DNA of 64,000 nt from Acidobacteriota bacterium. GTDB lineage: Bacteria; Acidobacteriota; Vicinamibacteria; Vicinamibacterales; CAVVIG01. The notes beneath the pieces were generated by a model, which was not told the DNA's origin, did not search any database, and saw only the letters and a program-made list of their open reading frames with translations. Each line of letters starts with the position of its first letter. The stretch's first letter is position 1. Position numbers and translations under genes: made by a program. Where the stretch lies: NCBI GenBank assembly GCA_003222535.1, contig QHWJ01000238.1, forward strand, positions 5,270-69,269, written 5' to 3'. Positions 1 to 61,594 of the stretch are shown here, piece by piece.

Positions 1-267
1 GGATGAGCTGAAACCATTTTCATCCCCATCCACGACTTCTGCCGATCCTGCCCGTAGTGCTCGTCCTGCCTGCCTGCTTCCTGCCGCCGCCGTTTTCGGG
101 CGCGACTGTATGGGACAAGCCCCAGTCTGGTGACCGTTGAGGTCGTCTCCTGCCCGCTCAGGTGCCTCCGCGGCCCGTTCGCTGAAAATGTAATCGCCAC
201 AAGCCCTTTCTCGTCTACCATCTACAGGATTTTCGAGGCCGCATCTGGCCTCGTGAGGAGACGCCTC

Positions 268-2382
<2,115 letters not shown>

Positions 2383-2383
2383 A

Positions 2384-2459
2384 GACTGGGGGCTGGGGAC
2401 TGGGGACTGGGAACTGCCGATCGTGTAATTCTGAATTCAGAATTCTGAATTCAGAATTC
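2384..2459. repeat. Periodic G-rich array (CTGGGGA x~4) followed by a GAATTC-based palindrome; probable bidirectional terminator
   Basis: The sequence gactgggggctggggactggggactgggaactg is followed by aattctgaattcagaattctgaattcagaattc, which is self-complementary. It lies between convergent stops at 2382 (+) and 2480 (-). Confidence 0.8.
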
Positions 2460-4341: not shown

Positions 4342-5004
4342 CTACGGCTTTTTCCGCGGAGGCTTTGGCGCCGGCCCGGGGCGGTATTCCAGCGTCACGT
4401 TGCTGACGACCGCGATCGGGCGCCCGGGCTGCGAGTAGGTGGCGGCACCATCGATCCGTTCAACCGCCAGCTTTTCGCCAAGCAGGCTCACCTGCGCTTC
4501 GCCTTCAGGAATTGCGACCGTGATCGACTCGGCACCGGTCGGCGCAACCGCCTTGACGCCGCCGCCCGCGCCGCCGCCGACTCGATCGACCAGATCCCTG
4601 GCCGTGCGGAACTCGTTCTGCACCACCGCCCGGCTGATCAACGTGTTGTCCATCGTCAACACGCCGATTGTGGCCGTGTAGCGCGCGTAGGCGCGGCGCG
4701 CCTTCACCTGCTCTTCCGAGTAGGTGTGCAGGTTGTGCAGATCGAAGGTGAGCGTCGCGGCGCCCTGGTGCGGAGGAATCTGGATGAGCACTCCCGCTGA
4801 GGGGTCGCGCTCTGCCATCACTTCGCAGAACGCCAGCCTCGTCTTGACGCCGACGCCCAGCGGCGCCGGACACGTCATGTCGGGAGCGATCGTCCTGGGC
4901 GCGGCGGGAGGCGCCGGAGCCGGCCTGCGGACGGGCTTACGGGTCTGCGACCACACGGGAGCCGCGAACGCCAGAACCACGAGCAGGGTAGAAGCGCGAC
5001 GCAT
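4342..5004 (-). CDS. Hypothetical secreted protein
   Basis: 220 aa ORF with a clear signal peptide (MRRASTLLVVLAFAAPVWSQ) and Pro/Ala-rich linkers at both ends. No recognisable domain. Confidence 0.6.
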   Translation of the reverse strand: MRRASTLLVVLAFAAPVWSQTRKPVRRPAPAPPAAPRTIAPDMTCPAPLGVGVKTRLAFCEVMAERDPSAGVLIQIPPHQGAATLTFDLHNLHTYSEEQVKARRAYARYTATIGVLTMDNTLISRAVVQNEFRTARDLVDRVGGGAGGGVKAVAPTGAESITVAIPEGEAQVSLLGEKLAVERIDGAATYSQPGRPIAVVSNVTLEYRPGPAPKPPRKKP

Positions 5005-10677: not shown

Positions 10678-11277
10678 TCAGTCTTCCCCCACGCAGGCGT
10701 ACCCCGTCGACTCGCGAATCCCCGGCACCGCACTCCGCAGCTTGATCAGCTCCAGGAATTCCATGCGCGTGCGCGCGTTGTTGCGGAAGGCGCCCTGCAT
10801 GGCGCTCGTCACCGCGAAGGAGTTCTGCTTCTCGACGCCGCGCATCGACATGCACAGGTGCGTCGCCTCCATGACGACGGCCACGCCGACCGGCGCGATC
10901 TTGTCGTGGATCGTGTCGGCGATCTGGTTCGTGAGCCGCTCCTGAACCTGGAGTCGGCGCGCGAAGACGTCGACCAGACGCGGGACCTTGCTGAGACCGA
11001 TCACTTTGTCGCTCGGGATATACGCGACGTGGCATTTGCCGAAAAACGGGAGCAGGTGGTGCTCGCACAGGCTGTAGAAGTCGATGTCCTTCACGATCAC
11101 CATCTCGCTATAATCGACCGTGAACAGGGCGTTGTTCACGACCTGGTCGATGTCCGCCCCGTATCCACTCGTGAGAAACTTGTACGCCTTCTCGACGCGT
11201 TTCGGCGTGTTGCGCAGGCCCTCGCGGTCGGGATCTTCGCCGAGGTCCGCCAGCAGCTTCCTGATCACATCCTGCAT
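10678..11277 (-). CDS. folE: GTP cyclohydrolase I
   Basis: 199 aa with the conserved core [22 protein letters not shown] and HLCMSMRGV. Confidence 0.95.
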
Positions 11278-11971
11278 CTTTCTATTCTATATCCCGGCCC
11301 CGGCGGCTCAATCGCCGGACGCCCTGTACGCCGGCCGGGCCGACATCGCCAGCGCGCGCCGCGCCGCCGACATGTGGGCCGCCACGCTGGCGGCCGATCC
11401 GCGAGATTTCGAAGCCGCGTGGAAGCTCGCGCGAGCAGACTACTGGCTCGGGGGCCACGCACCCGACCGCGAACGGCGCGCGTTTCTCGAGCACGGCATC
11501 GAGGCCGGGAAAAAGGCCGTCGCGGTACAGCCGAACCGGCCGGAAGGACACTTCTGGATCGCGGCCAACATGGGCGCGCTCGCCGAATCGTTCGGCCTTC
11601 GCCAGGGACTCAAATACCGAAAACCGATCAAGGAGGAGCTCGACACCGTCCTCCGTCTGGACAAGCGGTTCCTCGACGGCTCCGCCGACCGCGCGCTGGG
11701 ACGCTGGTACTTCAAGGTGCCGCGCGTGTTCGGCGGCAGCGCAAAGCTCGCCGAAGCGCATCTGCGCGCGTCGCTGACGTACGACCCGGCCGGCACGGCG
11801 TCACATTTCTTCCTTGCCGAGCTGTTGCTGGATCAAGGCCGAACCGACGAAGCGCGCGCCGAGCTGCAAAAGGTGCTCGACGCACCCCTCAATCCGGCGT
11901 GGGAGCCCGAGGGCCGGGACTTCAAGGAAAAGGCACGGAAGATTCTCGCAAGTCTGAAGTCTGAAGTCTGA
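11120..11971 (+). CDS. TPR-like protein (resembles TatT-family helical repeat proteins); start uncertain
   Basis: ORF 11120..11971. The body has helical-repeat character ([41 protein letters not shown]). The first 158 nt overlap the folE 5' end on the opposite strand. The next in-frame ATG is at 11372, so the true start is unresolved. Confidence 0.5.
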
Positions 11972-12001
11972 AGTCAGACTTCAGACTTCAAACTTCAGAC
12001 T
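11951..12001. terminator. Near-perfect palindrome of 7-nt units (AGTCTGA)n/(CTTCAGA)n
   Basis: The sequence agtctgaagtctgaagtctgaagtcagacttcagacttcaaacttcagactt is centred near 11976. Both convergent genes (stops at 11971 and 12002) terminate inside or at the edge of it. Confidence 0.7.
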
Positions 12002-12856
12002 TCATACTTCATACTTGTAAAAGCCTCGTCCGCTTTTTCGACCGAGGCGCCCAGCCAACACCATGCGTTTCAGCAGCGGCGGCGGCGCGTACGCCGGCTC
12101 GCGGAACTCCTCGAACATGATGTTCGCGATGTAGTACGTGGTGTCGAGGCCGACGAAGTCGAGCAGCGTGAACGGCCCCATCGGGTAGCCGCAGCCGAGC
12201 GTCATCCCCTTGTCGATGTCTTCGAGCGCGCCCAGGCCGTTCTCGTATGCGCGGATCGCATCGAGCAGATACGGCACCAGCAGCCGGTTGACGATGAAGC
12301 CCGGGCGATCGGGCGCCGTGATCGGCTCCTTCCCAAGCGACTCCGCAAAGGCGAACACGGTCTGATACGTCTCGTCGCTCGTCGTCAGGGCCCGGATCAC
12401 CTCGACCAGTTTCATGAGCGGGACCGGGTTGAAGAAATGCAGGCCGCCGAACCTGTCCGGCCGGGTCGTCGTGGCCGCGAGCTCTGTGATGCAAAGCGAC
12501 GAGGTGTTGGACACGAAGATGGTGCGGTCGTTGACGATCTTTTCGAGCGCCGTATAGGTCTGCTGCTTCTCCTCGAGGTTTTCGACGATCGCCTCGATGA
12601 CGAGATCGCAGTCCTTCAGTGCGTCGAAGGTCGTCGACCCGGACATATTGCCGAGCGTGGTGTCGCGCGCGCCGGCCGTCACCTTCCCCTTCGCGACGCC
12701 TTCGTCCAGAAACTTCTTGATGCGGCCGAGCCCTTTGTTCAGAAACGTCTCGTCCACTTCGCGAACGATCGTCTTGTAGCCGGCCGCCGCACACACCTGC
12801 GCGATCCCCGAACCCATCAGGCCGCAGCCCAACACGCCAACCGTCTTGATCTCCAT
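12002..12856 (-). CDS. hbd: 3-hydroxybutyryl-CoA / 3-hydroxyacyl-CoA dehydrogenase
   Basis: 284 aa with the NAD-binding motif VGVLGCGLMGSGIAQV, a SNTSSL motif and a C-terminal 3HCDH domain (GRKSGRGFY). Confidence 0.9.
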   Translation of the reverse strand: MEIKTVGVLGCGLMGSGIAQVCAAAGYKTIVREVDETFLNKGLGRIKKFLDEGVAKGKVTAGARDTTLGNMSGSTTFDALKDCDLVIEAIVENLEEKQQTYTALEKIVNDRTIFVSNTSSLCITELAATTTRPDRFGGLHFFNPVPLMKLVEVIRALTTSDETYQTVFAFAESLGKEPITAPDRPGFIVNRLLVPYLLDAIRAYENGLGALEDIDKGMTLGCGYPMGPFTLLDFVGLDTTYYIANIMFEEFREPAYAPPPLLKRMVLAGRLGRKSGRGFYKYEV

Positions 12857-12868
12857 CGTTGCCCTTAC

Positions 12869-12948
12869 GGTCCGCCTGAGGCGGACACTACGCGGTCGCT
12901 GAGAGTCCCCCTTCGTACGTGGCGTCCGGCTTCAGCCGGACGCCACGT
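12869..12948. repeat. Two REP-like hairpins (GGTCCGCCTGAGGCGGACACTACG and ACGTGGCGTCCGGC-TTCA-GCCGGACGCCACGT)
   Basis: The 14-bp-stem hairpin at 12917..12948 has its loop providing the stop codon of the upstream dehydrogenase ORF (end 12932). The family consensus GGTCCGGCTGAAGCCGGACAC recurs at 16770, 18130, 36362, 44489 and 44588. Confidence 0.75.
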
Positions 12949-14014
12949 CCGCCCGGTCAGGGCCGGATTTTCGCACGTGTGACGCAATATAGTCGCCTGT
13001 TTCACGCGTGCCGAGTGAGCCGCCGATCTCTTTCGTCCCGTTCCCGGTGACGACCGCGTCCTGCACGGCCGCTTCGATCGCGGCCGCTTCCTGTTTGAGC
13101 CCGAGAGACTCCAGCATGAGCGCGGCCGAGAGGATCGCGCCGATCGGATTGGCGACATTCTTCCCGGCAAGCGGCGGGGCCGACCCATGCACCGGCTCGA
13201 ACATCGATGTGCGGCCGGGATGGAGGTTGCCGGACGCCGCCAGGCCGAGGCCGCCCTGCAGCGCGGCCCCCAGGTCGGTAATGATGTCGCCGAAGAGGTT
13301 GTTGGTGACGATCACGTCGAATTGGGCCGGGTTCTGCACCATCAGCAGCACGAGGGCATCGATGTAGAGATGACGGGCCTCGACGCCGGGGTACTGCGGC
13401 GCCACTTCCTTGAGGACACGCTGCCACAAGGCATGACCCTGGGTCATCGCGTTGCTCTTGTCCGCCATGCACACGCGGCGCCGGCCGGTCGCCTTCGCGA
13501 ACTCGAAGGCGTGCTTCACGATCCGGTGCACGCCCTTGTACGTATTCAGCTCTTCCTGAATCGACACTTCATCGTTGGTCCCGGCCTTGAAGCGTCCGCC
13601 GATCCCGACATACAGGCCCTCGGTATTCTCGCGGAACACGACGAAGTTCACGTCCGCCACCGACCGATCCTTCAGCGGACAGAGCCGCGCGTCGAGCAGC
13701 TTGACCGGCCGGTAGTTGACGTAGAGATCGAGCTCGAACCGAATGCCGAGCAGGATGTCGCGCGCGTGCCGGTTGTCGGGCACGCGTGGATCACCGAGCG
13801 CGCCGATGAAGATCGCGTCGAAGTCGTCGCGCAGCATCGCGTAGCCGTTGGGCGGCATCGTGATGCCGGTCCGCAGGAAATGATCGGCGCTCCAGGGCAG
13901 CTTCTCGATATCGAACCGGTGCCCGAAGACGTCCCCGACCGCGCGCACGGCTTCGACCGCTTCCGCCGTCGTCTCGATGCCGATGCCGTCGCCGGGGATG
14001 ACAGCTATACGCAT
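12932..14014 (-). CDS. Isocitrate/isopropylmalate dehydrogenase family enzyme, tartrate / D-malate dehydrogenase (DmlA/TtuC)-like
   Basis: 360 aa with MRIAVIPGDGIG, VVFRENTEGLY, NLFGDIITDLGAAL and FEPVHGSAPPLAGKNVANP. The pattern is closer to DmlA/TtuC than to LeuB, from memory. Confidence 0.8.
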   Translation of the reverse strand: MRIAVIPGDGIGIETTAEAVEAVRAVGDVFGHRFDIEKLPWSADHFLRTGITMPPNGYAMLRDDFDAIFIGALGDPRVPDNRHARDILLGIRFELDLYVNYRPVKLLDARLCPLKDRSVADVNFVVFRENTEGLYVGIGGRFKAGTNDEVSIQEELNTYKGVHRIVKHAFEFAKATGRRRVCMADKSNAMTQGHALWQRVLKEVAPQYPGVEARHLYIDALVLLMVQNPAQFDVIVTNNLFGDIITDLGAALQGGLGLAASGNLHPGRTSMFEPVHGSAPPLAGKNVANPIGAILSAALMLESLGLKQEAAAIEAAVQDAVVTGNGTKEIGGSLGTRETGDYIASHVRKSGPDRADVASG

Positions 14015-14016
14015 CT

Positions 14017-14085
14017 GGTAATCGGGTAATCGGGTAATCGGGTAATTGATTGGTTAATTGATCGGGTCATTGATCGGGAATCGGC
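14017..14085. repeat. Octamer tandem array (GGTAATCG x3, then degenerate)
   Basis: The sequence ggtaatcgggtaatcgggtaatcgggtaattgattggttaattgatcgggtcattgatcgggaatcgg fills the spacer between two co-directional genes. Confidence 0.7.
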
Positions 14086-16653: not shown

Positions 16654-16769
16654 CGATGAACGTCGCCCCCGCAGAGATCTCCAAAGACTTGACGGCTGAA
16701 AGGCTCGCCCTTCATCGCTCGCCTGAAGGCTTCGCGCTCCGCTGATGATGTCCTCGGCGTTCCTCGGTC

Positions 16770-22570: not shown

Positions 22571-23506
<936 letters not shown>

Positions 23507-24285: not shown

Positions 24286-25770
24286 ATGGCCAATCCGACC
24301 GCCGCATCCGCGGCCGCCATGGGACTCGACACCGAGTTCCATCGCGGCCTCGGCCTCTACGACTCGACGATGGTCGTCGTCGGATCGATGATCGGATCGG
24401 GGATCTTCATCGTCTCGGCCGACATGGCGAGGAACATCGGCAGCGCCGGCTGGCTGTTCGGCGCGTGGATCCTCACGGGCGTGCTGACGGTGGTGGGCGC
24501 CCTCTCGTACGGCGAGCTGGCCGCGATGATGCCGCGCGCGGGTGGACAGTACGTCTATCTGCGGGAAGCGTTCTCGCCGCTGTGGGGATTCCTGTACGGC
24601 TGGACGCTGTTTCTCGTCATCCAGACCGGCACGATCGCGGCCGTCTCGGTCGGCTTCGCGCGCTACTTCGGCGTGCTGCTCCCATGGATCGCCGACGAGC
24701 GCTACCTGATCGCGCCGATCCACCTCTCGACCGGCTACGCCCTGTCTCTGTCGACGACGCAGCTCGTGGGCATCCTGCTGATCGCGCTCCTGACGTGGAC
24801 CAACACGCGCGGTCTCCAGTACGGCAGGATCATCCAGAACGTCTTCACCACGGCGAAAACCGGCGCGCTGCTCGGGCTGATTCTCGTCGGCCTGCTGCTT
24901 GGCTGGAATCAGACGGCCGTCGCGGACAACTTCGGCAACCTGTGGGACGCGCGGGGGGCCGTGGACCTCGTGCCGGGGCTCAGCGCCGTGACGGCGCTCG
25001 GCCTGTTCGTTGCGGTCTGCGTGTCGCAGACCGGTTCGCTCTTCTCCGCCGACGCATGGAACAACATCACGTTCACCGCCGGCGAGGTGAAGGACCCTCG
25101 ACGGAACGTGCCGCTCTCGCTCGCGCTCGGGACGGCCGTCGTCATCGGCCTGTTCCTGCTCGCGAACGTCGCGTACCTGGTCACCCTGCCGCTCGACCAG
25201 ATTCAGCACGCGCCGGGCGACCGCGTGGCGACGGCGACGTTGAACGCCATCTTTCCGGGGCTCGGTGCGACGATCATGGCGATCGGCATCATGATCTCCA
25301 CCTTCGGGTGCAACAACGGGCTGATCCTCGCGGGCGCCCGCGCGTACTACGCGATGGCGCGAGACGGGCTGTTCTTCGGGGCGTCCGGCGAACTGAACGA
25401 CGCGAAGGTGCCGGCGTGGGGCCTGCTGTTCCAGGGGCTGTGGGCGGCGCTCCTCGTGCTGCTGCGGACCTACGATCCGGCGACGCGCGCGTACGGCAAT
25501 CTCTACAACAACCTGCTGGATTACGTCATCTCGGCGGCGCTCATCTTCTACATTCTGACGATCGCGGGGATCTTCCGCCTGCGCAGCACGCGGCCGGACG
25601 CCGAGCGGCCATATCGCGCGCTCGGCTATCCCGTCGTCCCGGCGCTCTACATCGCCGGGGCCGCCGCCATTCTGCTCGTGCTGTTCATCTACCGCCCGGC
25701 CACGACGTGGCCGGGGCTGGTCATCGTGCTGCTCGGCGTACCGGTGTATTTCGCCTGGAAACCGAAGTGA
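24286..25770 (+). CDS. APC superfamily amino acid permease (LAT/SteT-like)
   Basis: The ATG at 24286 follows GGAG (24276-24279). It has about 12 TM segments, an N-terminal signature VVGSMIGSGIF and GELAAMMPRAGGQYVY. Confidence 0.9.
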   Translation: MANPTAASAAAMGLDTEFHRGLGLYDSTMVVVGSMIGSGIFIVSADMARNIGSAGWLFGAWILTGVLTVVGALSYGELAAMMPRAGGQYVYLREAFSPLWGFLYGWTLFLVIQTGTIAAVSVGFARYFGVLLPWIADERYLIAPIHLSTGYALSLSTTQLVGILLIALLTWTNTRGLQYGRIIQNVFTTAKTGALLGLILVGLLLGWNQTAVADNFGNLWDARGAVDLVPGLSAVTALGLFVAVCVSQTGSLFSADAWNNITFTAGEVKDPRRNVPLSLALGTAVVIGLFLLANVAYLVTLPLDQIQHAPGDRVATATLNAIFPGLGATIMAIGIMISTFGCNNGLILAGARAYYAMARDGLFFGASGELNDAKVPAWGLLFQGLWAALLVLLRTYDPATRAYGNLYNNLLDYVISAALIFYILTIAGIFRLRSTRPDAERPYRALGYPVVPALYIAGAAAILLVLFIYRPATTWPGLVIVLLGVPVYFAWKPK

Positions 25771-25884
25771 CAGAGCAGGTCAAGGCCGGGCGGACTGTAC
25801 GCACCGCCGACACGCCATTGCTCTCGAGACTCCGAATCGAGCCTGCCGCAGCACTGACGCTCGGGCGCACAACACCACGCGGTC

Positions 25885-25957
25885 GTAGCGCGAAGGCTTC
25901 AGCCGAGCGTCAGTCCACGTACAACGCAGAAACCGCGGAACCCGCAGAGAAAAACGG
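25885..25957. repeat. Half-copies of two repeat families (GCGCGAAGGCTTCAGCCGAGCG and AACGCAGAAACCGCGGAACCCGCAGAGA)
   Basis: The string gtagcgcgaaggcttcagccgagcg is identical to 44448-44472. The string aacgcagaaaccgcggaacccgcagaga is identical to 23576-23603. Confidence 0.7.
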
Positions 25958-25989
25958 TTAGGGTTTGCCCAGAGCGGATTCACCCCACC

Positions 25990-26445
25990 CTACGTTCGGC
26001 TGTGGGACGAAGCAAGGGCTTTTCGAATCACGGCGATCGCCGGGTTGGTGACGCGGTAACTCGCCAGATCCGGAACCGGCACCCAGCGAACGTCGGCCGC
26101 ATCCGACCCGCACGCCGCAGCGGCCCCCTTGTCGGAAACGCGACACCGATAGTCGATGATGATGTAGTGGTATTCGGCGCGACCGTCGGCGTCACGCCGG
26201 ATGCTGTCCAGGACCTCGACGACCGGTCCGACCTCGATGTCGAGGCACGTCTCCTCGCGCACCTCACGCACCAACGCGGCCTGCAGCGTCTCGCCGATCT
26301 CGACTGCGCCGCCCGGCAGGCTCCACTCGCCTTTCAATGGCTCCTGGCCGCGTTTCACCAGCAGTACGCGGTCGCCGTCAAGAATCACCGCGCCGACCGC
26401 CACAATCGGCCGCTCCGGATGGCGCCTGCCATCGGCCATCACCAT
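25990..26445 (-). CDS. NUDIX hydrolase
   Basis: 151 aa with the Nudix box [24 protein letters not shown]. Confidence 0.9.
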
Positions 26446-26522
26446 GCCCTCAGCCCTCAGCCCTCAGCCCTCAGCCCTCAGCCCTCAGCCCTCAGCCCTC
26501 AGCCCTCAGCCCTTAGCCCTTA
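26446..26522. repeat. Heptamer tandem array (GCCCTCA x9 + GCCCTTA x2)
   Basis: The array fills the whole spacer between the yjbQ stop (26524) and the nudix ATG (26445). The sense (minus) strand reads (TGAGGGC)n. Confidence 0.95.
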
Positions 26523-26523
26523 C

Positions 26524-26937
26524 TTAGACGCCGATCACTTTGACCACGACGCGCTTCTTGCGTTGCCCATCGAACTCCGCGTAGAACACCTGCTCCCACG
26601 GCCCGAGATCGAGCGCGCCGTTCGTGATCGGCAGGACCACCTGGTGACCCATGATGGTGCGCTTCAGGTGAGCATCGGCGTTGTCCTCACCCGTCTGGTG
26701 ATGCCGATAGTCGAGGCCCGACGGGGCGAGCTTCTCGAGCCAGACCTGGAAGTCGTGGATGAGACCGTCCTCCCAGTCGTTCACGTACACGCCGGAGGTG
26801 ATGTGCATCGCCGACACGAGCGCGGTGCCTTCCTTCACCCCGCTTTTCTTCACGATCGCCGCGACCTCGTCGGTGATACGTATGAACTCCTGCCGCTGCT
26901 TCGTGTTGAACAGGAGGTAATCGGTGTGAACTAACAC
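26524..26937 (-). CDS. yjbQ: YjbQ/UPF0047 family protein (secondary thiamine-phosphate synthase-like)
   Basis: 137 aa with [24 protein letters not shown] and [19 protein letters not shown] start at 26937. Confidence 0.9.
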
Positions 26938-26940
26938 TTG

Positions 26941-27004
26941 GTGAATTGGTGAATTGGTGAATTGGTGAATTGGTGACTTGGTAAGTTGGTGAATTGGTAA
27001 GTTA
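26941..27004. repeat. Octamer tandem array (GTGAATTG x8, three variant units)
   Basis: The sequence gtgaattggtgaattggtgaattggtgaattggtgacttggtaagttggtgaattggtaagtta fills the spacer between the tsaD stop and the yjbQ start. The last unit contains the tsaD stop codon. Confidence 0.95.
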
Positions 27005-28066
27005 CAACACCAGGGCCGCGTCCGCGTTGAGATCGAAGGACGCCGTCGACCCGGCGCGGAATTTCCGGAGCCCGGCGGCGGCGATCATCGCCGCGTTGTC
27101 GGTCGACAGGGCCAGGCCTGGCAGAAACGTCGGCACGTCACGGCGTGCGCCACGCGCCTGCAACTCGGCCCGCAGCCGGCTGTTCGCCGACACGCCGCCG
27201 GCGACGCCGACGCTCAGGGCCTGATACCGTCGCGCCGCCACGAACACCCGATCGATGAGCGCGGTGACCACGACGCGCTGGAAGCTCGCGCAGATGTCGG
27301 CGATTTCCTGGTCTGTGAACGAAGCGCGCTTGGCCGCGTCGTGCTGGCGCGCCCGGACGTGGCGCAGCACCGCCGTCTTGAGGCCGCTGAAGCTGAAGTC
27401 GAGATCCCCCCTCAGCTCCGGCGCGTTCCGGTCGGCGTGCGTCAGACGCGTCGTCGGCAACACCACCGCCCGATCGTCACCGCTCTTGGCCAATCGATCG
27501 ATCACGGGCCCGCCGGGATACCCGAGGCCGAGCAGCTTCGCGACCTTGTCGTACGCCTCGCCCGCCGCGTCGTCGCGCGTGCGGCTCAGACGCTGATAGG
27601 CTCCCGGCCGTTCGACGAGATACAGGCTCGTGTGGCCGCCGGAGACGACGAGGACGACGGAGGGCAGCGGCAGCTCACCATTCTGCAGAACGAGCGATTC
27701 GATGTGGCCGGCAAGATGGTGGACGGCGACCAGCGGAAGGCGGGCGGCGGCGGCGGCGGCCTTGGCGAACGACACGCCGACGAGCAGCGATCCGACGAGC
27801 CCCGGCCCCTGCGTGACCGCGACCGCGCCGAGGTCGGGCCACGCCGTTCCGGCCTCGGCGAGCGCGCGCTCGACCACAGCGCAGATGTCGCGGATGTGCT
27901 GCCGGGACGCGAGCTCCGGCACGACACCGCCCCACTCGCGATGAATCGCCACCTGCGAGGCGACGACGTTGGAGCGGATCGCCCATGGCTCGGCGGCGTC
28001 GCCGGTCTCTTCGACAACGGCGGCCGACGTTTCGTCGCAGGAAGTTTCGATACCGAGAATACGCAT
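27002..28066 (-). CDS. tsaD: tRNA N6-adenosine threonylcarbamoyltransferase
   Basis: 354 aa with [24 protein letters not shown] and SGGHT motifs. Confidence 0.95.
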
Positions 28067-28072
28067 GGTGTG

Positions 28073-28171
28073 CGCTCGGCTGAAGCCTTCGCGCTCCAGA
28101 GTGTCGACGTCCGCTCGGCTGAAGCCTTCGCGTCCAAAGTGTCGACGTAGCGCGAAGGCTTTGGCCGATCG
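28073..28171. repeat. 38-bp tandem duplication of the CGCTCGGCTGAAGCCTTCGCG element plus an inverted partial copy
   Basis: cgctcggctgaagccttcgcgctccagagtgtcgacgt is followed by ccgctcggctgaagccttcgcgtccaaagtgtcgacgt and then agcgcgaaggctttggcc, which can pair with the second unit. Confidence 0.8.
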
Positions 28172-28216
28172 TCTTCTCTTCGAATCGCGCTACGAAAACG
28201 ACGGAGCGCGAAGCGT

Positions 28217-29272
<1,056 letters not shown>

Positions 29273-29291
29273 CGGTCGATTGTACAGGGAT

Positions 29292-29439
29292 CGGTTCAGC
29301 GTTCAGCGTTCAGAGTTCAACGTTCGTTCTGTTCTAGGTTCTGGGTTCCAGGTTCCAGGTTCCGGGTTCTGGGTTCCTGGCGCGAAGCGCCGAACGAACC
29401 CTGCACCTCGAACCTTGAACCTTGAACTTGAACCCTGAC
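29292..29439. repeat. Periodic GGTTC-rich array facing a GAACC-rich array (long imperfect hairpin)
   Basis: The left side reads ggttcagcgttcagcgttcagagttcaacg..ggttccaggttccaggttccgggttctgggttcc. The right side reads gaaccctgcacctcgaaccttgaaccttgaacttgaaccc. It fills the spacer between the cdd stop and the mtnA start. Confidence 0.75.
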
Positions 29440-29445
29440 CGTGTT

Positions 29446-30285
29446 CTAGAGGAGCCTCGCGTCGAACGGCAGTGGCAGCAGGTTCTTGAGCTGGTGCGTG
29501 CCCTTTTCCTCATTGAGGTTTGCCAGCTGGATTTCGAGGTTGCCGCCGAACTCCCACAGTATCTGGCGGCACGCGCCGCACGGCGGCGTCGGCGCTTCGG
29601 TGTCGGCGACGATGGCGATGCGCGTGAAGGCGCGGTGGCCTTCGGAGAGCGCCTTGTACAGGGCGACGCGTTCGGCACACATCGTGAGGCCGTAGGTGGC
29701 GTTCTCGATGTTGCAGCCGGTGATGACGGTTCCGTCGACGGCCTCGAGCGCGGCGCCCACCTTGAAGTGCGAGAAGGCGGCGTCCGCGCGCTCGCGCGCG
29801 CGCCGCGCGGCGCCGACCAGATCGATGTCGCCGCCGTCTCGCACACGTCGCGGGCCGATCCTCCTCTCCCGGTGGGCGCGCCGATCCCCCTCCGGGCGGC
29901 CGACGTCCTTGACCCGGCGATCGAGCCCGGTGCGGCGATCGGCTTCGACGCGCGCCCGCCGCTCGTCGAGCAGCAGGCGGATGGGAGCGTTGCGCCGCAC
30001 GCCGTTCACCAGGTGCGTCACGCGCGCAATCTGATACAGCTGGGCGGTGATCGCGTGGACTTCCGTGTCGCGGTGGCAGCGCTCGGCGGCGGTCGCGTCG
30101 GTCCAGTACCGGACCGCGTAGAAGCGCATCGGGTGCGCCTCGTCGCGAATCATCTCGGCGCGGCCATACTCCTTGCGGACCATGAGCGCCTCGAAGTCGG
30201 TCGAGATCGTCAGGAACTCGGCTTCGCGGCCCGGCATGACCTCGACGAGCGACACGGACAGCCGCCGGCCATCAGAGCTGTCCAA
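29446..30285 (-). CDS. cdd: Cytidine deaminase fused to an N-terminal ABM/Dabb-like domain via an Arg-rich linker
   Basis: The C-terminal approximately 130 aa are FSHFKVGAALEAVDGTVITGCNIENATYGLTMCAERVA..PCGACRQ (CAE and PCxxC zinc motifs). The N-terminal approximately 100 aa (LSVSLVEVMPGREAEFL..FYAVRYWTD) resemble a ferredoxin-like ABM fold. The linker is DRRTGLDRRVKDVGRPEGDRRAHRERR. No internal ATG or GTG lies before the deaminase domain. Confidence 0.8.
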   Translation of the reverse strand: MDSSDGRRLSVSLVEVMPGREAEFLTISTDFEALMVRKEYGRAEMIRDEAHPMRFYAVRYWTDATAAERCHRDTEVHAITAQLYQIARVTHLVNGVRRNAPIRLLLDERRARVEADRRTGLDRRVKDVGRPEGDRRAHRERRIGPRRVRDGGDIDLVGAARRARERADAAFSHFKVGAALEAVDGTVITGCNIENATYGLTMCAERVALYKALSEGHRAFTRIAIVADTEAPTPPCGACRQILWEFGGNLEIQLANLNEEKGTHQLKNLLPLPFDARLL

Positions 30286-36462: not shown

Positions 36463-37818
36463 ATGGACGAGAAGAAAGCCGAAGAACTGATCCGGCGGCT
36501 CGCCGCGGCCCTGCGCGGCACCGAGCTGTACTCGGCAACACACCCGCTGGTCCAGCGCGGCGTCGACTCCCTGACGGCGGCGGCCCATGAGGGTCTTCAG
36601 CGCACGCCGACGGTGATCATCGGGTTCCTCGGCGACGAGGTCGTCGTCGACGGCACGCGACTGCCGAAAAGCACGGCGTCGCTGATTGGATTCGCCCGCG
36701 ATTTGCGCGATCGCGGCATCGAGAAGGTGACGCTCAACCGCGGCCTCTCGCGGGCGGAAGTCGTCGGTCTCATCGCGGCCTTCAGCGACCGCGCGTCGCC
36801 CGTGCCGCTTGCGGACAGGCTGATCGCGCGCGGCGTCCGGAACGTCACGCTGGGCCGCATCGTGGTCGACGAGGTGAGCGACGACGAGGCGGGCATCGCG
36901 GCGGCCAGACGGGTCTACGGCACCGCGGTCGAGACCGCCGAGATGCTCTGGAACGCGGCCCAGGCCGGCGATCTGCCGGATCCCGGCGCCGCGCGCAAGA
37001 TCATCGACGGTCTGGCGCGGCTCGTCACGCAGGATCGGACGTCGTTGATGGCGCTGACCGCGCTGAAGAAGTACGACAACTACACGTTCACGCACATGGT
37101 GAACGTGTCGGCGCTCGCCATGGCCCAGGCGCGCGCGCTGAACATCGACGGCCCGCTGCTGCGCGAGTTCGGGTTTGCCGCGCTGATGCACGACATCGGC
37201 AAGGTGCACACGCCGCTCGAGGTCCTGAACAAGCCGGGCAAGCTGAGCAAGGACGAGTTCGACGTCATGAAGCGCCATGTCGTGGACGGCGCCCACATTC
37301 TACGGCGCACGCCCGAGATGCCGGCGCTGGCGCCGATTGTCGCGTTCGAGCATCACCTGAAGCAGGATCTGAGCGGGTACCCGGAGAACATCGGCGACCG
37401 GAAGCTGAATCTGTGCACCATGATCGTCTCCATCGCCGACGTGTTCGATGCCCTTCGGAGCAACCGTCCGTACCGGCAGGGTCTCGCCACGGTTCGCATT
37501 CGGAGCATCATGAGCGAGCAGGACAATCCGGCGTTCAACCAGGTGCTGCTCAAGCGCTTCGTCAACCTGATGGGCCTGTTTCCGGTCGGCAATCTGGTGC
37601 GCCTCAACACGGGCGAGATCGCGGTCGTCACCGCCGAGCACCCGACCGATCCGTTCCGGCCGCAGGTGAAGATCATCATGGACACGGACGGCGGGATGCT
37701 CGAGGAGCCGGTGCTCGCCAATACGTGGGAGCGTGACGGGCGGGGCGAACATCCGCATGCGGTGGTCGAGGCCGTCGATCCGGAGTCGACCGACATCGAT
37801 CCGCTCACTTACCTCTGA
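36463..37818 (+). CDS. HD-GYP domain protein, paralog B1 (putative cyclic-di-nucleotide phosphodiesterase)
   Basis: 451 aa. The ATG follows GAGGA. It has THMVNV, LMHDIGK, KPGKLSKDEFDVMKRH, FEHHLKQDLSGYP and ADVFDALRSNRPY. Confidence 0.9.
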   Translation: MDEKKAEELIRRLAAALRGTELYSATHPLVQRGVDSLTAAAHEGLQRTPTVIIGFLGDEVVVDGTRLPKSTASLIGFARDLRDRGIEKVTLNRGLSRAEVVGLIAAFSDRASPVPLADRLIARGVRNVTLGRIVVDEVSDDEAGIAAARRVYGTAVETAEMLWNAAQAGDLPDPGAARKIIDGLARLVTQDRTSLMALTALKKYDNYTFTHMVNVSALAMAQARALNIDGPLLREFGFAALMHDIGKVHTPLEVLNKPGKLSKDEFDVMKRHVVDGAHILRRTPEMPALAPIVAFEHHLKQDLSGYPENIGDRKLNLCTMIVSIADVFDALRSNRPYRQGLATVRIRSIMSEQDNPAFNQVLLKRFVNLMGLFPVGNLVRLNTGEIAVVTAEHPTDPFRPQVKIIMDTDGGMLEEPVLANTWERDGRGEHPHAVVEAVDPESTDIDPLTYL

Positions 37819-37866
37819 GAGTTGGTGAGTTGGTGAGTTGGTGAGTTGGCGAGTTGGTGAGTTGGT
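37819..37866. repeat. Octamer tandem array (GAGTTGGT x6, then degenerate to about 37900)
   Basis: The sequence gagttggtgagttggtgagttggtgagttggcgagttggtgagttggt starts at the nucleotide after the B1 stop. Confidence 0.9.
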
Positions 37867-37915
37867 GATGGTGAGTGGAGGGTGGGGACTGAGTGGTGAT
37901 TGAGCGCGGCGAGAC

Positions 37916-44217: not shown

Positions 44218-45089
44218 TGCATCCGAATGAGGACGCCATCCACGCTTACGTCGACGGGTCGCTCGGCGCCGCCGAACGGACCGGGATCGATCGGCACGTC
44301 GCATCGTGCGCGTCGTGCCGTCAGCTTCTCGAGGATCTGCGCGAGATCCTCCGAGCGGCGAAAGCGCTCGAGCTGCGCGAGCCGCCGGCCCGCGTCTGGT
44401 CGCGTCTCGAGCGCGCGATCACACTCGAACGCGACGACGCCGAACCCGTAGCGCGAAGGCTTCAGCCGAGCGGCATGGCGAGCGACACAGGTCCGGCTGA
44501 AGCCGGACACGACCGGAGGGCGTCGGGAGCGCGAGGCCCGGCCTCTGGAGCGCGAACGCTTCAGCCGAGCGGCACGGCGAGCGACACAGGTCGGGCTGAA
44601 GCCGGACACGACCGGAGGGCGACATGGCTCGCCGCGGCGGCGGCGGTCGTGCTCGCGACGGCCGTCGGCCTCCGCTTCATGCCGTCGGGCGGTGAGAGTG
44701 TCCGGAGCGGTGCGCCCGCCACGACCACGGTCGCGGAAGGCGACCGAGCGGAGTCGGTCGAAACGGAGCTGCGGCAGGCCGAAGCGCATTACGAGAAGGC
44801 CATCAAGGGGCTCGAACAGATTGCGAGCGCCGAGCGGAACGCGCTGGACCCGCGAACCGCGGCGACGCTGCAGAGGAATCTCGCGGTGATCGATCAGGCC
44901 ATCACCGAGAGCCGTGCGGCGGTGCGGTCCGAGCCCGCCAGCGAGCCGGCGCAGCAGAGCCTCCTCGAAAACTTCAAGAGCAAGATCGCGCTGCTGCAGG
45001 ACACCGTGGCGCTCATCAACGAAATGCGCAAGGGCAACGAGGCTGGAGCGGCGCGCATCGTATCCGGGCTCAAACAAAAGGGCGACTGA
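44217..45089 (+). CDS. Anti-sigma factor (zf-HC2 type), single-pass membrane protein
   Basis: The ATG overlaps the sigma-factor stop (TAATG). It has an HxxxCxxC motif (HVASCASCRQLL) and a TM helix WLAAAAAVVLATAVGL. The linker contains two in-frame REP-derived units. Confidence 0.8.
   Translation: MHPNEDAIHAYVDGSLGAAERTGIDRHVASCASCRQLLEDLREILRAAKALELREPPARVWSRLERAITLERDDAEPVARRLQPSGMASDTGPAEAGHDRRASGARGPASGARTLQPSGTASDTGRAEAGHDRRATWLAAAAAVVLATAVGLRFMPSGGESVRSGAPATTTVAEGDRAESVETELRQAEAHYEKAIKGLEQIASAERNALDPRTAATLQRNLAVIDQAITESRAAVRSEPASEPAQQSLLENFKSKIALLQDTVALINEMRKGNEAGAARIVSGLKQKGD
44451..44621. repeat. Two 72-nt composite REP units 99 nt apart, inside the anti-sigma CDS
   Basis: gcgcgaaggcttcagccgagcggcatggcgagcgacacaggtccggctgaagccggacacgaccggagggcg (44451-44522) is repeated with 4 substitutions at 44550-44621. 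Confidence 0.9.
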
Positions 45090-60614: not shown

Positions 60615-61028
60615 ATGATCCGCCGCGCTCGCATGACCATCGATCGTCTCAAGAAGCGAATGGACGGCCGCTTCACGGCGCTGGAGCGACGGGTGAACGG
60701 CCGTTTCACCGAACTGGAGCGGCGGATGAACGGCCGCTTCACCGAACTGGAGCGGCGGATGAACGGCCGCTTCACAAAACTCGAGCGCCGGACGAACCGC
60801 CGCTTTGCGTCCGTGGACGCTCGATTCGACGACGTCGACGCTCGATTCGCCGCAGTAGACGCCCGTCTGGACCGAATGGAAGCGCGCATCAGCGCCCGAT
60901 TGGATTCGGTCATCGAGAAGCTTGATACTCACTTTTTGATCAACAAAAACCATTTCGATCATCACACGGTGATACTGCATGAGCACGACGACCGTCTCAA
61001 AGACCTCGAGCGGCAAACGGGCACGTGA
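60615..61028 (+). CDS. Hypothetical coiled-coil protein built of 11-residue and 7-residue tandem repeats
   Basis: The ATG at 60615 is in ORF 60387..61028. The repeats are MDGRFTALERRV / NGRFTELERRM x2 / NGRFTKLERRT / NRRFASV, followed by DARFDDV / DARFAAV / DARLDRM. The 3' half is visibly AT-richer than its surroundings. Confidence 0.5.
   Translation: MIRRARMTIDRLKKRMDGRFTALERRVNGRFTELERRMNGRFTELERRMNGRFTKLERRTNRRFASVDARFDDVDARFAAVDARLDRMEARISARLDSVIEKLDTHFLINKNHFDHHTVILHEHDDRLKDLERQTGT
60662..60793. repeat. 33-bp tandem repeat, 4 copies (plus a fifth degenerate one)
   Basis: The units at 60695-60727 and 60728-60760 differ by a single nucleotide. Confidence 0.9.
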
Positions 61029-61508: not shown

Positions 61509-61594
61509 GCGGAAGTGGCGGAACGGCAGACGCGCTAGCCTCAGGAGCTAGTTGGAGCAATCCAGTGGGGGTTCGAATCCCCCCTTCCGCACCA
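61509..61594 (+). tRNA. tRNA-Leu (anticodon CAG), class II with long variable arm, encoded CCA
   Basis: The cloverleaf was folded by hand. Acceptor stem GCGGAAG/CTTCCGC, D-stem GCG/CGC, anticodon stem CTAGC/GCTAG with loop CTCAGGA, variable arm TTGGAGCAATCCAGT, T-arm GGGGG-TTCGAAT-CCCCC, discriminator A plus CCA. Confidence 0.93.

Follow-up and report, generated by a model that had tools for sequence, protein, structure and literature searches.

A copy-number-variable heptanucleotide array in the yjbQ–nudix spacer of a Vicinamibacterales genome fragment and the 7- and 8-bp intergenic repeats of its lineage

Many bacterial genomes, above all large ones of high GC content, are reported to contain an excess of heptameric simple sequence repeats (SSRs), and a polymerase-footprint slippage hypothesis has been proposed for them (Mrázek 2007, as cited in PMC4692102). 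Rehm et al. (2015; PMC4692102) described G-rich heptamers, GGGAATC in Xanthomonas and GGGGAYT in Nostoc, which form G-quadruplexes (G4s) in vitro. These repeats are intergenic, lie mostly between open reading frames (ORFs) that are aligned, often overlap stop codons and comprise 2–26 units with a mode of four. Their length differs between close relatives, they often occur as inverted pairs, and their function was not established. MacGregor (2015; PMC4679880) reported TAACTGA direct repeats in marine Beggiatoaceae, cyanobacteria and Bacteroidetes. Here, we analyzed a heptanucleotide array that fills the spacer between yjbQ and a nudix hydrolase gene in a 64,000-nt stretch of DNA from an acidobacterium of the Vicinamibacterales (assembly GCA_003222535.1, contig QHWJ01000238.1, positions 5,270 to 69,269; hereafter, the window). 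The array is an ordinary member of a known but poorly understood class, the bacterial heptanucleotide intergenic SSRs. The array and the genes around it are listed below; SD-like denotes similarity to a Shine–Dalgarno (SD) sequence.

26446–26522, minus strand: heptanucleotide array filling the yjbQ–nudix spacer, sense (TAAGGGC)2(TGAGGGC)9
26523–26526, minus strand: yjbQ stop codon TAA plus G, read from the sequence as a truncated unit TAAG
26454–26458, minus strand: SD-like GAGGG in the last unit but one, which by sequence position lies 8 nt upstream of the AUG of nudix
25990–26445, minus strand: nudix hydrolase gene, 151 aa (PF00293, E = 2e-23), with ATG at 26443–26445 and a second in-frame ATG at 26437–26439
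26524–26937, minus strand: yjbQ (UPF0047/secondary thiamine-phosphate synthase family), 137 aa, GTG start (PF01894, E = 9e-38)
27002–28066, minus strand: tsaD, first gene of an apparent tsaD–yjbQ–nudix transcription unit

On the plus strand, positions 26446–26522 read exactly (GCCCTCA)9(GCCCTTA)2, which is 77 nt. A preliminary description of this DNA had taken the whole spacer to consist of these heptamers; the units are as described, but the spacer is 78 nt long, because one base (G at 26523) separates the yjbQ TAA from the array. The sense RNA is UAA-G-(UAAGGGC)2(UGAGGGC)9-AUG, so that the earlier reading of the units running directly into the nudix AUG is confirmed. The array therefore begins 1 nt from the yjbQ stop codon and ends 0 nt from the nudix start codon, and the stop codon plus G is in register with it. 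In Tandem Repeats Finder (TRF), the array has a period of 7, 10.7 copies and 98% matches, and it scores 143. The sense RNA contains eleven GGG tracts with 4-nt loops. These give 8 overlapping canonical G3N1-7 motifs and a mean G4Hunter score of 1.26 on the sense strand, in agreement with the repeated quadruplex fit proposed earlier, for which such scoring had been suggested. The claim that every unit carries GAGGG and UGA holds for nine units; the two distal units carry AAGGG and UAA instead. Because 7 mod 3 = 1, the UGA and UAA triplets close all three frames, as had been pointed out.

The array shows the features of the heptameric intergenic SSR and variable-number tandem repeat (VNTR) class (Mrázek 2007; Rehm et al. 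2015). It is a head-to-tail iteration of a 7-nt unit (11 units), it is non-coding and lies between co-directional ORFs near a gene end, its unit number varies among close relatives, and period 7 is over-represented more widely in the window and in related genomes. It does not resemble elements of the repetitive extragenic palindromic (REP), miniature inverted-repeat transposable element (MITE) or clustered regularly interspaced short palindromic repeat (CRISPR) type, as its units are direct and head-to-tail, with no spacers and no inverted partner at the site. A search of the whole window against Rfam at the gathering cut-off found no family at any array, and the sole match was a tRNA at 61509–61591.

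As in the repeats of Rehm et al. (2015), each 7-nt unit of the focal array contributes one G3 tract and a 4-nt loop, and the array lies between co-directional ORFs near a stop codon. However, its unit is GGGCTGA/GGGCTAA, which does not fit the consensus GGGAATC/GGGANTN or GGGGA(C/T)T, and its host is an acidobacterium. It also fills its spacer and extends up to the start codon on the sense strand, whereas the start-proximal repeats of Rehm et al. mostly occupy the non-coding strand. The TAACTGA repeats resemble the focal array in being intergenic heptamers just upstream of start codons, with stop triplets (TAA, TGA) and housekeeping neighbours, and a translational role has been suggested for them and is unproven (PMC4679880). 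They have one conserved unit genome-wide, mostly in 2–6 copies, whereas we found diverse units and higher copy numbers. The short tandemly repeated repetitive (STRR) heptamers of Calothrix and Nostoc (ref. 39 in PMC4692102, as cited there) are likewise tandem heptanucleotides in non-coding DNA, in another phylum. The heptamer excess of Mrázek (2007) and of Huang and Mrázek (2014; PMC4060949) shares with the present case the preference for period 7, high GC content, non-coding location and the origin proposed for it in polymerase slippage. It concerns large, high-GC genomes of non-pathogens, and the present host is presumably a free-living soil organism. Huang and Mrázek (2014) contains nothing specific on heptamers of Acidobacteria. 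In our literature search we found no report on tandem or heptamer repeats in Vicinamibacterales, Vicinamibacter or other Acidobacteria, no publication on (TGAGGGC)n, and no bacterial paper containing the repeat sequence. To our knowledge, the focal unit also matches no known STRR unit.

An exact look-up of the YjbQ and Nudix proteins yielded 16 further distinct contigs from soil metagenomes and two metagenome-assembled genomes (MAGs), so that, with the window, 17 assemblies of the same population from ENA, NCBI and JGI sources were available. Although both proteins are identical or near-identical across these assemblies, the alleles have 3, 4 (seven assemblies), 7, 8, 8, 9, 11 (the window), 12, 15, 15 and 15 units. 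The TAAGGGC block comprises 1–7 units and the TGAGGGC block 2–10 units; the two vary independently and are never interspersed, as expected for local slippage. Array alleles start with TAA-G-TAAG[G/A]GC, with the divergent contig L098 as the only exception. L006 and L008 have 15 and 4 units, and L096 and L099 have 7 and 15 units, with 0 differences in 1470 nt of flanking sequence within each pair. Therefore, the array mutates much faster than point substitutions accumulate, and it is a fast-mutating VNTR. The suggestion that this is a slippage-prone locus with variable copy number, to be checked in related genomes, is thus strongly supported. In L098, an apparent 184-nt spacer was rejected as a scaffold N-gap artefact; its readable copy is a degenerate 4-unit allele.

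The spacer on the other side of yjbQ is also built from a repeat:

26938–27001, minus strand: octanucleotide array filling the tsaD–yjbQ spacer, sense CTTACCAA TTCACCAA CTTACCAA GTCACCAA (TTCACCAA)4

This octamer array has 6, 7 or 8 units among the same contigs. Its unit is unrelated to the focal heptamer and is not G-rich, and it abuts the yjbQ GTG without an SD-like motif.

We then asked how common such arrays are in the lineage. A YjbQ scan of species-representative genomes gave 80 loci, almost all labelled Vicinamibacterales or Acidobacteriota, with 77–89% identity. These loci and the window (1.4 Mb) were surveyed by TRF for arrays of at least 3 copies. We found 154 period-7 arrays, and 132 of them were intergenic according to a crude gene call based on GC content at third codon positions (GC3). 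There were 47 arrays of period 8 and 29 of period 9, and almost none of period 5, 6 or 11. Three controls had no period-7 array: the related DNA (1.4 Mb) after Markov shuffling, S. meliloti pSymB (64% GC) and E. coli, with 50 kb taken from each of the last two. The 201 arrays of period 7 or 8 contain 133 distinct canonical units and G-rich units are not enriched, whereas Rehm et al. (2015) studied one G-rich unit family. The density of about one period-7 or period-8 array per 5–7 kb looks high and is derived from syntenic fragments, not whole genomes. Analogous arrays occur on 0.6–4 Mb contigs of related MAGs, and the lineage arrays are found in all gene-orientation contexts. A bias towards the upstream stop codon, as in Rehm et al. 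(2015), was sought, but nearness to the upstream stop and to the downstream start did not differ significantly (58 vs 47, p = 0.33).

The window itself has 10 period-7 and 3 period-8 arrays. By our own detector, all period-7 and period-8 arrays lie outside genes, and they often start 0–2 nt from a stop or start codon. Besides the focal unit, the units are GACTGGG, AATTCAG, AAGTCTG/TCAGACT, ATCGGGTA, GTTCAGC, GTTCCAG, GAACCTT, GAGTTGGT and TCAAGGC, which are unrelated. The focal unit is also found elsewhere: (TGAGGGC)n with 4–24 units was present in at least 120 unrelated metagenome contigs among the matches listed, with GC content of 34–75% and from diverse habitats. By these matches, the TGAGGGC unit is an SSR that recurs across many bacteria and not one peculiar to yjbQ–nudix. 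Some of these contigs (L101–L220) have an inverted (GCCCTCA)n partner close by.

The nudix gene lies directly after yjbQ in 51 related species, and the junction mostly measures −25 to +6 nt. In most relatives the two genes thus overlap or are less than 10 nt apart, which shows that the ancestral junction was tight. Since the junction is mostly of this kind in relatives, the window array appears to have been inserted or expanded recently, at a junction that was formerly coupled. Clean arrays occupy the junction in five of the 51 species (TTGAGGAT, TGAGGATT, ATTGGCG with 24 units, CTCGGGA with 12 and ATTGCAGG with 8); their units are unrelated, and degenerate or inverted arrays are found in several more species. 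We considered whether the junction is a hotspot for arrays and rejected this, because 5/51 (10%) compares with a background of 88/641 (13.7%) at co-directional junctions. In the relative L017 the junction reads TGAGGGAG, and in the relatives L043, L044 and L090 it reads TAAGGG after the yjbQ stop codon. These sequences suggest that the unit was seeded from the stop-codon region (TAAGGG/TGAGGG). At the same junction, TGAGGATY octamers in two related species, L029 (10409–10440) and L036, begin with the yjbQ stop codon. They appear to supply an SD-like GAGGA and the nudix TTG start, so the initiation region there would be partly repeat-built.

The assignment of YjbQ is supported by TIGR00149 (118 bits, cut-off 67.75), and the nudix product is 151 aa or 149 aa in other gene callers. 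A promoter and terminator scan of 25700–29600 found no such site between tsaD, yjbQ and nudix, and co-transcription of the three genes is therefore likely. All alleles keep ...UGAGGGC-UGA[G/A]GGC-AUG before nudix, and in the window the alternative AUG, which lies two codons downstream, has the GAGGG of the last unit 7 nt ahead of it. SD-like motifs at −18 to −4 are present in about 20% of genes in the lineage and in 9% in a control window. Because the proportion is only about 20%, an SD role of the array GAGGG before nudix is possible but not required. The predicted canonical opening energy of −15 to +5 around the nudix AUG is 9.5–11.2 kcal/mol for n = 3–16 units. These are canonical values only, as the G-quadruplex option combined with hard constraints was inconsistent, with G4s apparently ignoring the unpaired constraint. 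Thus, copy number is not predicted to tune the accessibility of the ribosome-binding site (RBS).

Taken with the variation described above, these patterns led us to consider the focal array probably a slippage-driven heptanucleotide SSR that serves as a near-neutral spacer, with uniform units preserving the local initiation context. Slipped-strand mispairing at replication would create the array and keep resizing it. It would be one case of a sequence-independent excess of 7-bp (and 8-bp) repeats in non-coding Vicinamibacterales DNA, expanded within an ancestrally overlapping or few-nt yjbQ–nudix junction, with the stop-codon region (TAAGGG/TGAGGG) as a possible seed. Three reasons may explain its persistence. 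Period 7 would not be able to extend into coding sequence; the UGA or UAA of each unit would close the three frames; and like units would place the same 20–30 nt before the nudix AUG, including GAGG(G) 8 nt upstream, at any copy number. Since the AUG-proximal context is invariant, we expect the array to have a small, unregulated effect on the expression of nudix. The slippage mechanism, like near-neutrality, is inferred.

Several points weigh against this explanation. The modal allele has four units (7/17), which is the minimum for an intramolecular G4, and this mode echoes the preference for four units of the G-rich heptamers in Xanthomonas. Units with a stop triplet are somewhat commoner on the sense strand, with 32 vs 17 discordant cases (p = 0.04), and selection, instead of seeding at stop codons, could be the cause. 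Near-neutrality is suggested by comparative patterns of sequence, and the gene calls in relatives behind some of these are the crude GC3-based ones. The copy numbers are those of consensus metagenome assemblies, made from short reads with k = 141 at least for the contigs named k141_. Alleles of more than about 19 units would break such contigs, and a consensus hides heterogeneity within the population.

The first alternative is that the array is a contingency locus or rheostat. Unit number would alter the distance from stop to start, and hence coupling or re-initiation, and would give heritable and selectable variation in Nudix. The extreme variability of unit number at near-zero flank divergence agrees with this, and so does the tight ancestral junction, where coupling was probably ancestral and was broken by the array; repeated SD-like motifs could also retain scanning ribosomes. 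However, an intergenic array with stops in all frames allows no ON/OFF frame switching, and no promoter spacing is affected in the scanned region. The RBS context next to nudix does not vary between alleles, and accessibility is predicted to stay flat with n. The rate of arrays at this junction is at or below background, and Rehm et al. found no link of heptamers to phase-variable gene classes (PMC4692102). The contingency loci of host-adapted pathogens (Moxon et al.) have hypermutability by slippage in common with the focal array, but they have 1–5-nt units in ORFs or at −35/−10 and switch surface or restriction genes, whereas the unit here is 7 nt and lies between cistrons. Here only the hypermutable repeat number is present. 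The array is neither in an ORF nor at a −35/−10 position, and the genes beside it (nudix downstream; yjbQ and tsaD upstream) are not surface, host-interaction or restriction-modification genes, Nudix being a generic housekeeping hydrolase. We therefore regard a contingency locus as unlikely, and the proposal to that effect in the preliminary description is not borne out. The same holds for a copy-number-variable tuner of nudix translation, as all alleles have the same AUG-proximal units and the opening energy is flat.

The second alternative is a G4 in RNA or in non-template DNA, in which four or more UGAGGGC units would form a three-tetrad G4 and sequester GAGGG or insulate nudix from yjbQ, making translation dependent on K+ and structure. 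The sequence has the capacity, with its eleven G3 tracts and 8 motifs on the transcribed sense strand, and the modal allele of four units is compatible with it. For (GGGAATC)3GGG, a DNA oligonucleotide with the same G3N4 architecture, a G4 that depends on K+ has been reported, the T1/2 in 100 mM KCl being 50.4 °C (PMC4692102); by this analogy, formation of a G4 by the focal array in vitro is plausible. When the ViennaRNA G-quadruplex model is applied to the array in context, the structure of minimum free energy (MFE) includes a G4 and gains 2.5 kcal/mol (−59.6 vs −57.1 kcal/mol). For the array alone, however, this model gave no energy gain. The canonical fold consists of stacked 4-bp helices of GGCU with GGCU (G.U/G-C/C-G/U.G) at −26.6 kcal/mol (z = −2.1), and this wobble hairpin equals any G4 solution. 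RNA G4s are reported to be mostly unfolded in bacteria, which also counts against a regulatory RNA G4.

The comparative evidence points in the same direction. If a G4 were functional, at least four G3 tracts would be conserved, but 5/17 alleles (L003, L004, L093, L100 and L098) have only 2–3 intact GGG tracts, owing to TGAGGTC, TAAGAGC or TGAAGGC variants or to having three units in all. Nor is there a preference for the transcribed strand. The 105 arrays in co-directional spacers include 9 that carry four or more G3 tracts on the sense strand and 11 that carry them on the antisense strand. The sense-strand GC skew is about 0, and SD-like motifs in units are found in 7 sense and 8 antisense cases. 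Units bearing G3 or C3 make up 28% of heptamer arrays, and 22–32% is expected from intergenic composition. Equivalent spacers, including the adjacent tsaD–yjbQ spacer, are filled by unrelated units that are not G-rich. With no enrichment and no strand bias, the lineage arrays argue against selection for G4 or SD capacity, and the G4 potential of the focal array is most likely an incidental by-product of unit composition. RNA G4s engineered to mask the SD sequence in E. coli (from the Hartig laboratory; PMC4692102, its refs 21 and 44, as cited there) likewise have G-tracts that overlap a putative RBS motif just before the start codon, but they are artificial constructs, while no natural selection for a G4 is detectable here. 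Thus, of the proposed RNA G4 or structured insulator, the sequence capacity stands and the selection expected of it does not. We consider this alternative rather improbable, and a regulatory role of the array as RNA G4 or tuner is unsupported.

It is a more speculative idea, and one to which we would give still less weight, that the hypermutable heptamer arrays of Vicinamibacterales are evolvable inter-cistronic modules, in which length sets the degree of uncoupling and G-rich units add an RBS-masking, K+-dependent RNA quadruplex once four tracts are intact. If this were true, the yjbQ–nudix series of 3–15 units would be a natural expression rheostat, and a lineage-specific process would build regulatory DNA (RBS, stops, hairpin terminators) from simple repeats.

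It is very improbable that the array is a binding platform for a repeat-recognising protein or RNA (S1, Csp, CsrA-like) or a DNA-structural element acting in curvature or nucleoid organisation. Heptamers just upstream of starts have been proposed as sites of a post-transcriptional regulator in Beggiatoaceae (PMC4679880), and the wide recurrence of (TGAGGGC)n with at least 4 units could be seen in the same light. However, no single sequence-specific binder would explain a class of 133 units in 201 arrays, the arrays occur in all gene-orientation contexts, and there is no Rfam match. An artefact of assembly or sequencing, or a coding repeat on the plus strand (ALSPQPS...), hardly needs consideration: tandem repeats are error-prone in short-read assembly and a 310-aa plus-strand ORF spans the array, but the artefact explanation is effectively refuted by independent assemblies (17 from ENA, NCBI and JGI, with clean 7-nt steps), by arrays that are all shorter than the k of the k141_ contigs and by the analogous arrays on long MAG contigs, and the coding reading was rejected because such ORFs overlap two well-supported minus-strand genes and 7-nt indels would shift the frame.

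As a single locus the focal array, a typical bacterial heptanucleotide SSR, matters little; what is of value is the pattern across the lineage and the natural series of alleles. Vicinamibacterales, which are soil Acidobacteriota represented here by metagenome assemblies only, have a strong sequence-independent excess of 7–8-bp intergenic repeats, for which we found no earlier description. Because the units are so diverse, the lineage separates period-7 slippage from unit-specific function, and this bears on why heptamers are favoured in bacteria. The allelic series of 3, 4, 7, 8, 9, 11, 12 and 15 units, together with the variants that break G-tracts in otherwise identical sequence, is material for studying the effects of repeats and quadruplexes on translation. 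In practical terms, the arrays are also hypervariable markers of strains, and they are likely to break contigs when soil metagenomes are assembled.

The other features of the window that concern repeats are as follows.

2384–2459, plus strand: (GGGGACT-like) array of 4.7 copies, then a palindromic (AATTCTG/AATTCAG) array
11950–12016, no strand assigned: (AAGTCTG) with 4 units, then its complement (TCAGACT) with 6 units, between the convergent genes 11120–11971 (plus) and 12002–12856 (minus)
14013–14078, minus strand: octamer array, sense TACCCGAT, running into the ATG of gene 12932–14014
29294–29438, no strand assigned: three heptamer arrays, GTTCAGC, GTTCCAG and GAACCTT, upstream of mtnA and partly inverted
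37817–37876, plus strand: octamer array (GAGTTGGT) with 7 units that begins within the stop codon of gene 36463–37818, which has an HDIG domain
25890–25909, 28073–28131, 28152–28227, 44453–44571 and 16716–16735: sites of the GCGAAGGCTTCAGCCGAGCG element, from a mismatch-tolerant search

The GGGGACT-like array (2384–2416) begins 1 nt past the stop codon of gene 130–2382 and, with a G4Hunter score of 1.97, ranks second in strength among the G4 candidates of the window. Its unit matches the Nostoc unit GGGGAYT of Rehm et al. (PMC4692102). It is followed at 2427–2459 by a perfectly self-complementary (AATTCTGAATTCAG) array. Gene 130–2382 (plus strand) encodes a 750-aa radical-SAM protein. It is most similar to Tes, the tetraether lipid synthase of archaea (NF045702; best match, at 310 bits and under the 450-bit cut-off), and the protein may bear on the synthesis of membrane-spanning lipids in Acidobacteria.

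The inverted pair at 11950–12016 has arms of 26–29 nt that are 90–96% complementary and 1–2 nt apart, so that it would form a hairpin, possibly a bidirectional terminator. Similar inverted array pairs were seen in the relatives L030, L076, L022 and L028, and also in Xanthomonas (PMC4692102). The arrays upstream of mtnA form 36-nt arms with 72% complementarity, and their proximal GCTGAAC units occupy the −35 position relative to a TACAAT box just before the mtnA ATG.

The dispersed 20-nt element GCGAAGGCTTCAGCCGAGCG has 8 occurrences at no more than 3 mismatches, where 0.05 are expected. Upstream of tsaD it occurs in a tandem duplication of 39 bp, and downstream of nudix there is a copy in the opposite orientation, so that the element brackets tsaD–yjbQ–nudix; we regard it as a putative REP-like intergenic element.

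In several genes of the window a TANNNT box, which is −10-like, ends 6–8 nt before the start codon, for example in ctataatcgaccGTG and tacaatcgaccgATG. Such boxes precede the starts at 11120, 34085 and 16279 and those of the minus-strand genes 28217–29272, 4342–5004 and 22571–23506. Because of these boxes near starts and the low share of genes with SD-like motifs, leaderless or SD-independent initiation may be frequent in the lineage. Finally, a 33-bp tandem repeat of 4.5 copies (85% matches) was found at 60656–60805, outside the confidently gene-called region. Its period is a multiple of 3, and it is probably a coding repeat.

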